From positions 7,465 to 71,464 of the forward strand of contig CAZPOP010000006.1 in assembly GCA_964588305.1 (NCBI GenBank): a stretch of 64,000 nt of DNA, read 5' to 3'. Of the stretch, positions 36,001 to 42,000 are shown in pieces (positions within the stretch are counted from its first letter, which is position 1; each line of letters opens with the position of its first letter). Made by a program: the position numbers. This DNA is from an uncultured Ignavibacteria bacterium. GTDB lineage: Bacteria; Zixibacteria; MSB-5A5; SM1-73.

Positions 36001-39000
36001 TGTTGTCTGTCCAGGCGACGTAAACGAAGCTGTCAACACTGGCTATGGTCGGGAACATGGCCGAAGCCACGGAACTGCCGTCAATGTGCTGATCAGCTTT
36101 CCAAGTGTTTCCATTGTCTGCAGAATTATTGAAGTAAATGTCAACAATGACGCCCGGTGATCTGTAATCGTGCCAGACACAATACACATGACTCCCCCAG
36201 CTGCTGACTCTCGCCCATTGAGACGCGTTTGCACCGGGGACGTCGGTGTTATCCAGAGGTCCTGTATCAGGCAAGTTCCAGGTCTGACCATTATCCGTTG
36301 AACGGTTGAAATAAATGTCGGCCTGACCCCCGTTTCTATAATCCTCCCAGGCCATATAGACATAGTTGCCATTCCGTGCAATCGAGGGCTTATCACTCGG
36401 GGCACCCACACCCAGGACTCCCGGAGGTTTGCCATTGTCAACCCTTTTGTCGAAGTAACCGTCCGGATCGGAAATATAGGTCATATACAGTTTTTCGCTG
36501 TTACCGGGATCTCCAGCCGCGGAAACAAAGCTCTTGGCTTTGAAGTCGCTATTTCCAAACGTGTAAAGTGGAGGAGCTAGGATATCAGCTACCTTAGTAT
36601 CCGTTCCGAATGTTTGCCCTCCATCCGTTGATTTATCCACATACAATGATCCAGGTTCATGTCCCCTGAAATAAGCATTATGCCAGGCTACGTATAGATC
36701 GCCGTCTGCGCCTACAAAGGGGAAGGCCCCTTCCGCACAGGCTGTCTGGGGTGGATCATCGTTGGTCTGCATAGGAGTTTCGAAAGAAACGCCGTTGTTG
36801 GTCGAGCGAGCAAAGAAAATGTCCGAGTTGAGGCCATTGGTGTCGTCTCTTTGCCAACCCACATAGATGTCATTTACATGTGAACTCAGACTGTTGGTGT
36901 CGACCGTCATCATGCACTTGTCCGCAAATTTCACCGGAGGCCCGGAACCTAAATAACCAATCTCATCTACAATAACCGGACTTAACCAATTGCGGCCGCC
37001 ATCGGTCGATTTGCATACGTAAATTCCGCTGGTGTCATAGAAAAAGGTTCCTTTGTAGGAGAGAAAGCAGGCATAAACGTTCCCAAAATTATCCGAGGCC
37101 ACTGAAGGGTCGCCCGTGGTGGTCCACATCTGGGGCAGTTGCACATCGTGCCAGCTCTTACCGCTGTCCGGGCTGTAGCTGATACCAAGAGACGTGCCGA
37201 TATCATTATATGCTACTACCATGTTCAGCGGATCGCCAACAAAGTGGCGATTAATGGTTATGCTTGGTTCATTCTGAACGCTGGTGCCAATATCCTGATT
37301 CACCTTCACATCGATCCCGGCCTGACCGGGCGTGACGCTCAGAAAAAGAACCACGATTCCTACCAAAATGGGAAATCCTGAGAATTGCATTTTGCATCCT
37401 CCCTCGTTTAATTCAGGATTTATGAAGAGATGCTATCCGCCTAACTGTTCTTTTACGTGTAAATTCAGTTTGGTCAAAAATCCCTCACGTCATCAGTTTA
37501 CTCAGAAAAGCGAAAATGTCAAGATGTTTGTGCGTCTTACTCCACACGTAGGTGATGTGAATGTTCGTGTGCGAATTGTATCCGCAGAAAGTAGACATAG
37601 GTTGCATCATTTCGAGAAAAAGAAGCAGATACCTGGGCCAGGAGACCAGACCGCAGGTCGCAACCGTACACTTAGAAAAACGGCCGAACCCCTCTAACTC
37701 AGAGATTCGGCCGGGTCTTGAACAAACGAAGATTCAAGAAATCACGGGCAGTTAGGCGGTGATCCTTCTAAGAAGAGGTAGTTGATGAGAAACATTACGT
37801 CAGCAACGTCCACCGTCTCGTCGCAATTGCAGTCTCCCACCCATAAAGGATCGGGTGCGGATCCGCCGATGAAGAGGTAGTTGATCAAATCCGTGACGTC
37901 GGCCACATCGATGATGCAATCACCGTTGGCATCGCCTCGCATGAACGAAACGTAGATATAATCTTGTCTGATCAAAGAATCGGTACAGTACTGGTTTGTG
38001 ACCACCAGCTTCACACTAAACGATCCGGTGTCATTGTAAGTGTGGATTGGATGCTGCTCGGTGCTGGTCGAGTCGTCCCCGAAGTACCACAGCCAGGAGA
38101 TCGGATTGCCCACCGACAGGTCTTCGAACTGCACCTCCTGGGGAACACAGCCTGATTCCGGTTCGGCATAAAAATCGGGTACAGGGAGAGCGAAAACCCG
38201 GATGTACTCCTGTCTGACCAAGGAATCGGCGCAGTATTGGTTTGAGACCACCAACTTCACGCTGAACAGGCCGGTGTCATTGTAAGTGTGGATTGGATGT
38301 TGCTCGGTACTGGTGGAATCGTCCCCAAAATACCACAGCCAGGAGGTGGGGTTGCCTTGCGTCAAGTCCTCGAACTGCACCGCCAGGGGAACGCAGCCTG
38401 ATTCCGGTTCGGCAGAGAAATCTGCCGTGAGCCCATGCACCATCAAGACGATCTCTGTGCTGTGTTCCATTCCGGCTTTCTGCTTGGACGTCTCCGAGCC
38501 GGTTACGATGATGGTGCTGGTGCCGGCAGGAGTGGAGACGGTTGTGTGGAAAGACAGAACTGAGGTGTCAGGCGGCACCACTGTGACCGGATCGAAATCA
38601 TAGGTGGTGTTTATCGGTAAACTGTCTTCGTCCACCGTCAAGGTGCAGGAAGAACTGAATCCGTACACGGAATCCAAGATCACGTCACAGCTCACAGACT
38701 CTCCTGCCATCGCGATCAGGGTCTCCGGTTCCGCTTCAATGGTGAAGTCCCGCTGAACAATGGCAAAATCAGAATCGCTTGCATCAGACGGGTCCCCGTC
38801 AGCCGCATCCGATATCCGAACTCTGCACTCAGCGGAGGGGGTATTCGGTACGGTCCATGAATGCACTCCGTCATCTGGAGTATTGGCTATTACGGTGTCC
38901 CAGTCCACTCCGCCATTGGTCGAGTATTCAATGGTGACATTACCTTCGTAGCCCTCTGAAAACCAGGTTATGTCGTGATTTTCTCCTGCGAATAGCGTTT

Positions 39001-42000
39001 CACCGCCGTTTGGCGACGTGACCTCAATCCGGACCGGACCAGCCCATAGGCATTGGGGCAAAACCTGTCTGGGATTGTAGACCCTCGCATCTTGTCTGGC
39101 CAAAGAAAGCTTACTTGACGGAGGCCACCAGGTGCTGTCTATACAGACGTGCATGGTGTCCTCCACGGTGAAGGTCATGGTGGCAAGCAACGTTCTGTCT
39201 CCCTCCCACCATCTTCGATTGGTCGGCGAGCTGGGAAGCGTGCTCAGCCACATGTGCGGCGGAGTAAGGGCAGAATCGCCCGCAAAGTAAAACCAGGCGC
39301 TGTCACTGGTCATATCAAGAACCCGGGTAGACCATTCCAGACCTTGAAACTGACTTGCCAGCCAGGCCATCCGGTTCTGCATACCTCCGAAGTCGCGCCA
39401 GATGCTTCTGCCAAAGTTGGGGTTGTATATTGTTATGGCATTGGTATTCCAATACGCGGACAGGCTGCAATAGGCGGTTGGATTTGTACGTGTCCATTCC
39501 AGAGGAATCACGAAAGCTGCAATCGAGTCCTGCACCCATTTGCTCTGTGATTCCCACCAGAAGCTGTTTGAATCGTGGGTCACCAGAACAGTGACAAACA
39601 AAAAGCGGGGAAAGTCTTCACCTGGGTCATTTATACAGATTGTATCACACTGCCCCGCAGAGTCACAGTCGATAAAACAGGTGTCTGTCGTCCAGGGGAC
39701 CAGGTGCAGGGTATCGCAAAGACCCAAATCAACCGTATCCTCGGGGCATTGAGCCAAGCAAATGCTACAGATACCAAATGCGAGTAGCATGGTCACTAAA
39801 TAGGGGAGAAGTCTTTTCATGATTCCGTTCCTTTCATAGGTTTCGGCTGCTTTGGCACAGATCATAACATCGTCTGAGGATAAAGCGCGGAAAATGATGG
39901 CTAGGTAACGTATAGCGCTTCCACGATTCGAAGTCTCGGACAAAGGTGCCATTTCATCTCGAATATCTGTCGCGCCAAAGGAATCCCCTAAGGTATGATA
40001 ATCAAAATTCCTGAGTTGTCAAGTAGGATTTTGCTTTAAAAGTACACTCAAGAAGTAAAACGGCCAAACCTCGCAACTCACAGATTCGGTTTTGGACAAC
40101 TGAATATCTAAGAACTCATGGGCAGTCAGGCGGCGGTCCTTCTATAAATAGGTAGTTCATAAGATACATCAAATCGGTAACATCGACCACATCGTCGCGG
40201 TTGCAATCCCCTCGCCACACGGGATTAGGTGGAGAGCCATAGATGAAGAGGTAGTTAATCAAATACATGACGTCTGCAATGTCGATCCGCCGATCGGAAT
40301 TGGCATCGCCTGCCAGGAAGATGCCGAAAGAGTTGTCGCTTCTATCGTAAGGATCACCATCGCCCGCATCCGAAACCCTGACCAGGCAGCTGTCTGAGGG
40401 AGTATCCGGTATAGTCCAGTGATAGGTCCCATCATTTTCGGTGCTATCTGCAATGGAAAACCAGTCTGTGCCACCTCTTGTGGAATGCTCGATCTTAACC
40501 ACGGGACCTAAAAAACCTTCGTAACTCCAGGTAATCTCATGAGTTTCGCCGACACACCAGTTCTCTCCACCGTCAGGTGAGATGACGTCGATTCGGGGCG
40601 GCACCGTTATGCAGATAGGAAGATTATCTCTGGGCACGTAGCTTTTCACGTCATATCGGGTGAACTTGAGGTTGTTGCTGACGGGCCACCAGGTGCTGTC
40701 TATACAAACCTGCATGCTGTCTTCGATTCTGAAGGTCAAAGTGGCAAGCAAAGTTCTCTCTCCCTCCCACCATCTTCGATTCGTCGGGTTACTGGGAATC
40801 ATGGCCAGCCACACGTGGGGCGGAGTAAAAAGAGAGTCAGCCCCAAAGTAATACCAGGAGCTATCACTGGTCATGGTAAGGGCTGTGGTGGACCATTCCA
40901 GTCCTTGAAGCTGCGCAGCCAACCAAGCCATTCGGTTGCTGTCCAATTCGGAAGGCTGAAAGTGACGCCAAATGCTTCTGGGAAATCTGGGGTCATAAGA
41001 GCTCATGGCATTCTCATTCCAATAGGTGGACAGACTGCAATAGGCAATGGGATTGGTATGGGTCCAGGCAAGAGGAACGATAAAACCGAAGATCGAATCC
41101 TGCACCCATATGGAATCCGGCTCGGGGCCCGGCAGCCCGGCATAGAAGGTGTTGGAATCGTGGGTCACCAGAAGGGGAACGTAGAGAAAGCAGGGAAATT
41201 TCTGGCCCGGATTATTTATGCAGATCGTATCACAGGTCTCCATAAAACATGAAATAAAACAGGTATCTGTCTCCGGCCAGGGAACAACGTGCAATGTATC
41301 ACAGGAACCCAGGTCCCATGAATATCCGAGATAACCGGAGTCAGCGCCGCAGCAATTGGTCACTGAATCCGAGGGATTGCAGGGAAATTGAGCCCAGGAG
41401 GAATCGAAGAAAACCAATGCCAGTATGACCACCAACATGTGAAGAAAGAGTTTTTTCATCCTTCCTCTGCTTCGATAAGTTCTGACGAGCTTCTTAGCGG
41501 TCCTGACCTTGTGTACGGCGACAGCCGAGAGAATGATGGCTTTGGAAAAAGTGGGGCAAGTCACGTTTGTAGTCCAAGGTTGAAAAAAACACGATCCGAT
41601 CTGAAATATCTTCCGTGCCAAAGAGTTTTCATCCAGGCCACAGTCAGGAACCCCGAGTTGTGATGTGCGATTTCACATGACAAAGGAGCTTGGGGAATGA
41701 AACCACGGTTCGGCTGCGTTCATCGTGCCTTTGCCCTGAAGGCTCAGGCCTGAAGGGAACAGAGTTGAAGGGCCAACTTCGGCGAAATCTCCGAGCTCAA
41801 GATTCATCCGGGTCTTTGACGCATACATATCCAGTCACGGTTCACATGGCGTCGGGCCGTCGAGGAACAGATAGTTGATCAGATAAACGACGTCCCCCAC
41901 GTCAACTTCTCCGTCCAGATTAACGTCTCCACAACTGGTTATGGGCTCGCACAGAGGCGCTGTACCGTTCGCGTACAGGTAGGTTATCAGATAGACAACG

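Follow-up and report, generated by a model that had tools for sequence, protein, structure and literature searches.

A secreted N-terminal domain family of Zixibacteria with a predicted cohesin-like fold and a possible role in dockerin binding

Two neighbouring minus-strand genes, here called A and B, lie in a 64,000-nucleotide stretch (the window) of contig CAZPOP010000006.1, from a bacterium labelled uncultured Ignavibacteria and placed by GTDB in the Zixibacteria. Their secreted, dockerin-ended products share an N-terminal region, the N-domain, that a preliminary description of the window could match to no named family. What is this domain, and what might it do at the head of a surface protein?

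The N-domain behaves as a family of its own in sequence searches. Pfam, NCBIfam and the sequences of the Protein Data Bank (PDB), searched with single sequences and with profiles, gave no match to it, and Pfam run on 87 family members matched the N-domain in 0 of 87, even at E ≤ 10. Profile matches were limited to dockerin and FlgD-Ig, and came from the C-terminal parts of homologs. N-domain proteins carry only the public names 'hypothetical protein' or 'T9SS type A sorting domain-containing protein' (T9SS, type IX secretion system). With the N-domain of A as query, a word-indexed search returned 85 family clusters (defined at 50% identity), of which all organism-named ones are Zixibacteria, and 312 proteins passed E < 1e-30 when 1.84 billion representatives were searched exhaustively with a profile. 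The N-domain is present in 210 of 223 retrieved proteins, and in 200 of these 210 it starts at most 70 residues from the N-terminus, directly behind the signal peptide.

The preliminary description had called for a survey of the domain's distribution, and this yields Zixibacteria plus a single exception: a pattern scan of GTDB species genomes, based on an 8-sequence alignment, located 6 loci, all in metagenome-assembled genomes (MAGs) of Zixibacteria except one in a MAG labelled Ignavibacteria. The exception may stem from mislabelling or misbinning, or another phylum may carry the family. The closest genome match, at 63% identity, is in a MAG labelled 'uncultured Ignavibacteria' (loci L003 and L006; CAYFQZ010000080.1 and CAYFQZ010000579.1). 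We conclude that the N-domain is a genuine unannotated secreted family, so far essentially restricted to Zixibacteria.

To which fold does this family belong? An AlphaFold2 (AF2) model of the A N-domain, made with the family alignment, is all-beta, with a predicted local distance difference test (pLDDT) score of 94.4 and a predicted template-modelling score of 0.89. Searched against the PDB with Foldseek, it matched cohesins, mainly of type II, with probabilities of 0.94-1.0 and template-modelling (TM) scores on the target of 0.42-0.51 for single-module chains. To remove the insertions, P0078, a minimal divergent member 34% identical to A, was chosen for a second model (residues 24-221; pLDDT 92.8). 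Its top 23 PDB matches are all cohesins (E 3.7e-6 to 6e-4, probability 1.00), with TM scores on the target of 0.25-0.61, lower for target chains with further modules. They comprise cohesins of types I and II from Ruminococcus, the C. thermocellum/A. cellulolyticus/C. cellulolyticum group and a 'CaCohA2' entry, together with a cohesin-like module of C. perfringens; a type III cohesin is found further down, at rank 38. No carbohydrate-binding module (CBM), enzyme or toxin is among the top 50 matches of P0078. The N-domain core has about nine main strands, with a ~40-residue insertion between strands 4 and 5 in which several invariant residues lie, and the model has the nine-stranded beta-sandwich (jelly roll) expected of Pfam Cohesin PF00963.

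These models suggest that the N-domain is a divergent cohesin-like beta-sandwich, its cohesin likeness being seen in the fold and not in the sequence. The structure search, which had been named beforehand as the test that could refute novelty, found a known binding-module fold, that of cohesins, so the domain is not new as a fold. Its earlier characterization as undescribed thus holds for the sequence family but not for the fold. We consider this description of fold and family, taken as a whole, to be highly probable.

Two other identities were weighed against these structural and conservation data. The lowest-E Foldseek matches of the A domain were alpha-hemolysin and leukocidin chains (E ~1e-3), which might point to a pore-forming toxin domain of the leukocidin/alpha-hemolysin kind. 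However, these matches have TM scores of 0.19-0.28 and root-mean-square deviations of 18-27 Å, they vanish for the P0078 model, and Pfam gives no Leukocidin match. There is no global match to the cap/rim/stem fold. We rejected this identity, which the P0078 search effectively refutes and which is scarcely credible.

The second identity is an enzymatic role. Conservation was counted over 195 full-length N-domains, in A numbering, and D31, G33, D36, T81, D83, D98, S99, P106, N125, R142, N149 and W163, together with L211, T214, T216, D221, D228 and P250, are near-invariant. Were the N-domain a beta-sandwich hydrolase or lyase, its invariant T-H-D, D-S, N, R and D could form the active site (Asp83, Asp98, Ser99, Asn125, Arg142, Asn149, Asp221 and Asp228 all being available), and multidomain members have no other catalytic domain. 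Yet the catalytic triad that had been proposed as a check is not supported. Ser99 and Asp83 are invariant, whereas some of the 195 domains have Asn (22 domains), Ser (3) or Asp (2) in place of His82; with Asn at this position in those 22 members, a Ser-His-Asp triad is unlikely, and it was rejected. Neither a beta-jelly-roll glycoside hydrolase nor a polysaccharide lyase or peptidase appears among the structural matches, and no profile matches an enzyme family. An enzyme is therefore very unlikely.

The same alignment bears on the cysteines, for which conserved pairs were to be sought. Co-occurrence gives four of them and suggests disulfides 25-35, 226-257, 48-62 and 52-58. Cysteines 48 and 62 are both present in 44 members and only one of them in 9; for 52 and 58 the counts are 19 and 5. 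In the A model, domain residues 25-29 and 35-39 (A 48-52 and 58-62) are the strands of a hairpin in which the Cys positions pair in antiparallel register, and this Cys-rich hairpin is probably held by two nested disulfides, C48-C62 and C52-C58. Only about one in four to one in three family members have it; P0078 and other divergent members are without the insertion, and the number of Cys drops to 3 in some members. The label 'Cys-rich' is therefore apt for the A/B subfamily but not family-wide, the block being a beta-hairpin insertion of a minority.

What a cohesin-like head might do is best approached through the proteins that carry it. Family members end in a dockerin in 38 of 87 cases and in a T9SS C-terminal domain (CTD) in 31 of 87, and the longer ones have extra PKD, Big, FG-GAP or beta-helix modules. 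No catalytic domain recurs among them. The lack of a recurrent catalytic domain and the two kinds of C-terminal end together provide a context for a docking head. In such an arrangement, the N-domain at the mature N-terminus would be the distal head, followed by immunoglobulin-like (Ig-like) or PKD spacers and then by a dockerin or a T9SS sorting domain as the C-terminal anchor. As a protein-docking module, the head would accept the uniform dockerins found on many secreted Zixibacteria proteins, the cargo in the window being a gingipain-like C25 peptidase, a Porphyromonas-type arginine deiminase and a beta-helix protein. T9SS-anchored members would serve as cell-surface anchors, while A, B and other members that combine head and dockerin would work as adaptors or as units of a chain, resembling monovalent or adaptor scaffoldins. 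We put forward, tentatively and as somewhat short of an even chance, that the N-domain head is a dockerin-binding docking module of A/B-type adaptor surface proteins. The wider proposal, that the N-domain is an unrecognised cohesin family and the missing receptor of the 'orphan' dockerins of Zixibacteria, in a diderm, T9SS-anchored and largely proteolytic analogue of the cellulosome whose scaffold module is missed by sequence searches, is doubtful. In it, T9SS-anchored members would present the N-domain on the outer membrane, head-plus-dockerin members would lengthen or branch the assembly, and the gingipain-like protease, the peptidyl-arginine deiminase and other dockerin-tagged enzymes would attach to it.

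The genomic context is consistent with docking in that N-domains and dockerin-bearing proteins occur in the same genomes. The window has five dockerin genes with a near-identical helix motif (DVADVxYLINYLF) and unrelated catalytic parts, and its minus strand carries a run of secreted proteins: C25-dockerin, deiminase-dockerin, B, A and a BNR-repeat protein. Dockerin genes adjoin family members in six related loci (L003, L004, L006, L009, L010 and L011). In L009 (4775-10240) and L011 (1387-7618), which are distant Zixibacteria contigs, a ~1100-aa dockerin protein with no other Pfam match is followed by one or two T9SS-anchored family members; these large dockerin proteins are homologous over their full length (35% identity over 1179 aa), and the family members there are 41% identical. 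An S8-subtilase-dockerin protein in L004 (126-6474) has the same C-terminal 570 aa as the L009 and L011 dockerin proteins, while in L010 an N-domain member is paired with a C25-dockerin gene, as in the window. A search of 196 kb of related DNA, most of it labelled Zixibacteria, revealed no clostridial-type cohesin, and our literature search found no paper linking Zixibacteria with dockerin, cohesin or cellulosome.

The layout of these proteins suits the main rival to a docking head, namely an adhesin- or lectin-type tip that binds a glycan, a mineral or a foreign protein, is unrelated to dockerins, and sits on an Ig/PKD stalk with a dockerin or T9SS anchor. The order of N-terminal head, beta-rich spacers (PKD, Big, FG-GAP or beta-helix) and C-terminal anchor is strict, as it would be for such a tip. 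Integrin calf and thigh domains, a stalk domain of the CLIPPER adhesin and pilins appear below the 23 cohesins in the P0078 list, and the ~18 invariant polar or aromatic residues would be compatible with a single fixed site for a ligand. Against this, no CBM or lectin is among the top 50 structural matches, at the top of which stand cohesins; CBMs are missing from the top 50 of either model. No Pfam CBM or adhesin family matches the domain, even weakly, and no CBM family is among the 25 most frequent of the 49 Pfam families matched by the 87 members. An adhesin tip would also leave the conserved adjacency to dockerin proteins unexplained. We regard it as possible without being probable.

Several observations weigh against reading the N-domain as a dockerin-binding cohesin relative. 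The TM scores to cohesins are only moderate, and Pfam Cohesin PF00963 matched 0 of the 87 members at E ≤ 10. Alignment of the N-domain by hhalign to a CipA-type cohesin profile (built from CipA Coh2, identical to 1ANU, and 15 database cohesins) gave probabilities of only 0.07-0.24%, a weak negative from a thin profile of 3-10 sequences, and aligned only 'LLATMTFTVE' with 'VFAKIRATVK'. The dockerins of the window are of one apparent type, so that, with a head binding them, A and B would self-associate or pair with one another. The tandem repetition typical of scaffoldins is rare, two N-domain copies being found in ~5 of 210 proteins (a sixth case with two matches is one domain split in two), although monovalent scaffoldins exist and this point does not exclude the reading. 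Dockerin genes are so frequent here that adjacency by itself carries little weight, and the abundance of invariant Asp, Asn, Ser, Thr, Arg and Trp residues would suit a conserved site for a small ligand or metal just as well.

P0086, P0087 and P0090 are among the few relatives with two N-domain copies. In P0086, a spacer of ~100 aa like residues 357-462 of A comes behind each of them, and a dockerin stands at the end, in a scaffoldin-like repeat layout.

A further rival explanation arises from the paralogs of the family, which form arrays in other Zixibacteria (three genes in SM23_73_3, two in SM1_73 and two in L011). Such tandem arrays of 2-3 genes in several genomes might reflect a purely structural, self-associating block of a surface layer or fibre, whose cohesin-like fold would be convergent and which would have no specific partner. 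The short members, which are head and dockerin only, and the disulfide stabilization of the domain would suit this idea. It does not account for the strong conservation of polar, surface-type residues at only 30% identity, nor for the fusion of the head to many different stalks, and we consider it unlikely.

The window itself contains only two N-domain copies, those of A and B, and their paralogy is clear: BLASTP aligns the proteins at 55% identity over 382 aa (E = 2e-138), with a second match across the C-terminal dockerins, and the N-domains alone are 62-64% identical. All shared motif blocks quoted in the preliminary description were recovered, with small register differences such as C-DSAGQ-C in A versus C-FMET-C in B. 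The ~300-aa region is indeed shared, but it is not a single domain; it consists of the N-domain of ~240 aa plus an Ig-like module of ~90 aa. A copy similar to this module is also found in the neighbouring deiminase protein, and its Pfam matches are weak (Kre9_KNH in B, E 0.17; only Reelin_subrepeat-B in A, E 0.087).

The DNA of the pair is similar, as had been noted, at ~72% identity. The tandem duplication that was taken from this to be recent is old, because synonymous sites are at or near saturation: Nei-Gojobori estimates of the synonymous rate (dS) are ~1.0 for the N-domain, saturated for the Ig-like module and 1.26 for the dockerin. With ratios of nonsynonymous to synonymous rates (dN/dS) of 0.18-0.29, the two sequences indicate a duplication that has been under purifying selection. 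The 3' flanks of A (37666-37740) and B are homologous (83% identity, 57 of 69 aligned bases) and are better conserved than the coding synonymous sites (dS ≥ 1), which could be due to constraint or gene conversion. The reported similarity of the downstream terminators is thus correct as to flank homology, but a strong terminator survives only in A (-30.1 kcal/mol, z -3.8), the B copy having decayed (z -0.2). Rfam gave no match on 37300-41900, and the conserved 3'-flank motif has no further copy in the window.

The open reading frames (ORFs) as mechanically called, 37742-39952(-) and 40116-41621(-), both reach upstream of the likely starts, which homologs and hydrophobic leaders place at MKRLLPYLV (39820) for A and MKKLFLHML (41459) for B. 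Behind both starts a signal peptide ending in A/Q can be read from the sequence. Both proteins end in a dockerin with duplicated D.N.D..[IV]D..D...L[IM]NYL motifs that passes the Pfam cut-off, and Pfam found no T9SS sorting domain (PF18962 CTD) on either. The Pfam matches of A include PKD_4 at 1.2e-26 and Dockerin_1 at 1e-06. The N-terminal Cys-containing extension of B is also seen in several T9SS-type homologs. The coordinates of these features are collected in Table 1.

Table 1. Genes A and B, their parts and the other dockerin genes of the window (HMM, hidden Markov model).
Feature	Position	Strand	Description
Gene A	37742-39820	-	692 aa; signal peptide, N-domain, Ig-like module, second Ig-like module, two PKD, dockerin
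A signal peptide	39752-39820	-	Residues 1-23; predicted cleavage ..CLA/QCPED, read from sequence; family consensus ..SWA/QCPED
A N-domain	39026-39751	-	Residues 24-265; predicted cohesin-like beta-sandwich; family HMM 2.1e-98
A Cys-rich beta-hairpin insertion	39614-39691	-	Residues 44-69, TTDTCFIDCDSAGQCDTICINDPGED; strands from AF2 model
A Ig-like module	38753-39025	-	Residues 266-356; common to B by alignment
A second beta-rich spacer	38435-38752	-	Residues 357-462; no Pfam match; same module behind each P0086 N-domain copy
A two PKD domains	37946-38434	-	Residues ~463-625; Pfam PKD_4 and PKD, 2 stretches each
A dockerin	37745-37945	-	Residues 626-692; two F-hand repeats; PF00404, 29.3 bits (cut-off 22.9)
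A intrinsic terminator hairpin	37681-37713	-	13-bp stem, then T run; -30.1 kcal/mol, z -3.84
Gene B	40116-41459	-	447 aa; signal peptide, Cys-rich extension, N-domain, Ig-like module, dockerin
B N-terminal Cys-containing extension	41316-41390	-	Residues 24-48, QFPCNPSDSVTNCCGADSGYLGYSW; absent from A by alignment
B N-domain	40587-41315	-	Residues 49-291; family HMM 5e-100
B Ig-like module	40317-40586	-	Residues 292-381
B dockerin	40119-40316	-	Residues 382-447; PF00404, 4.7e-09, 36.7 bits (cut-off 22.9)
B 3' flank	40042-40114	-	Homologous to A terminator region; hairpin decayed (fold z -0.18)
Promoter-like site between B and A	39995-40022	-	TTGACA, 16-nt spacer, TATCAT; 11/12, consensus match only
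Porphyromonas-type peptidyl-arginine deiminase (PF04371) with dockerin	41835-44153	-	Pfam
Gingipain-like C25 peptidase with PKD and dockerin	44708-46990	-	Beside the deiminase gene
Fifth dockerin protein, right-handed beta-helix region	3307-5262	-	Relaxed dockerin motif scan

Further features of the window were noted. The deiminase and the C25 peptidase lie side by side (41835-46990, minus strand), and both end in a dockerin without a T9SS CTD. In P. gingivalis, the same pair of enzymes, peptidyl-arginine deiminase and gingipain, is exported via the T9SS. The dockerin of the beta-helix protein, with the repeats that precede it, is 48-49% identical to fragments of dockerin proteins beside family members in L003 and L005. 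At the other end of the run, the BNR-repeat ORF (35267-37390) and an ORF with a T9SS sorting tail (34370-35206) are in the same frame with one TAA (35267-35269) between them (..HGAAW*TDIQINTGS..); judged from this reading frame, 34370-37390(-) probably represents a single gene interrupted by a nonsense mutation or by an error in the sequence. Trehalose-synthesis genes (GT20 OtsA-like and TreT-like) occupy 30020-34346(+), immediately upstream of the surface-protein run, and a tRNA-Met (47507-47582, minus strand) lies just past the C25 gene. The G+C content of 20001-22000 is 0.366 versus ~0.48 elsewhere in the window, and this segment may have been acquired; a 439-aa ORF at 20782-22101 has no Pfam match.

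In many uncultured phyla, dockerins are common without any annotated cohesin, and a cohesin-like family comprising a few hundred clusters would be a concrete and testable candidate for the partner to which they dock. If docking were confirmed, cohesin-dockerin assembly would extend to T9SS-bearing diderm bacteria, a new domain family would be justified for annotating Zixibacteria surface proteins, and structure-based search would prove to be needed for finding scaffold modules. Should the N-domain have a different ligand, it would remain the principal conserved 'head' among the surface proteins of Zixibacteria.

How does the N-domain compare with known systems? Like the cellulosomal cohesins (PF00963; for example 5LXV of R. 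flavefaciens ScaC, 5K39 of type II from C. thermocellum, and 1G1K and 2VN5 from C. cellulolyticum), it is modelled as a beta-sandwich of about nine strands, and it likewise occurs in secreted, non-catalytic proteins amid many dockerin proteins. It differs from them in having no detectable sequence or profile similarity, in its length (200-245 aa versus ~140-170 aa), in its extra insertions and disulfides, in being mostly single and N-terminal, and in belonging to a diderm phylum of the Fibrobacterota-Chlorobiota-Bacteroidota (FCB) group. R. flavefaciens ScaC combines a cohesin with a dockerin, while C. thermocellum OlpA and OlpC combine a cohesin with an S-layer homology (SLH) anchor. The layout of head plus dockerin in A, B and 38 of 87 relatives resembles that of the adaptor scaffoldin ScaC, whose cohesin is also the top structural match, and that of head plus surface anchor in 31 of 87 resembles the anchoring scaffoldins OlpA and OlpC, except that the anchor here is a T9SS CTD and not SLH. 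No hierarchy of dockerin specificities is evident in the window, where the dockerins are apparently of a single type. Fibrillar adhesins also place an N-terminal head on an Ig/PKD stalk with a C-terminal anchor, but the N-domain matches no known adhesive-domain family and its top fold matches are cohesins.

The closest parallel among uncultured phyla is 'Ca. Stygibacter' of the Cloacimonadota, for which dockerin-tagged C25, S8 and GH18 enzymes and a scaffoldin with canonical tandemly repeated cohesins, CBMs and a T9SS CTD have been described and proposed to form a cellulosome-like complex (PMC8542988). Dockerin-tagged gingipain-like C25 peptidases and T9SS-anchored candidate scaffolds are common to both. 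Whereas the cohesins of 'Ca. Stygibacter' are canonical and repeated, no canonical cohesin is seen here, and the candidate receptor belongs to a new sequence family.

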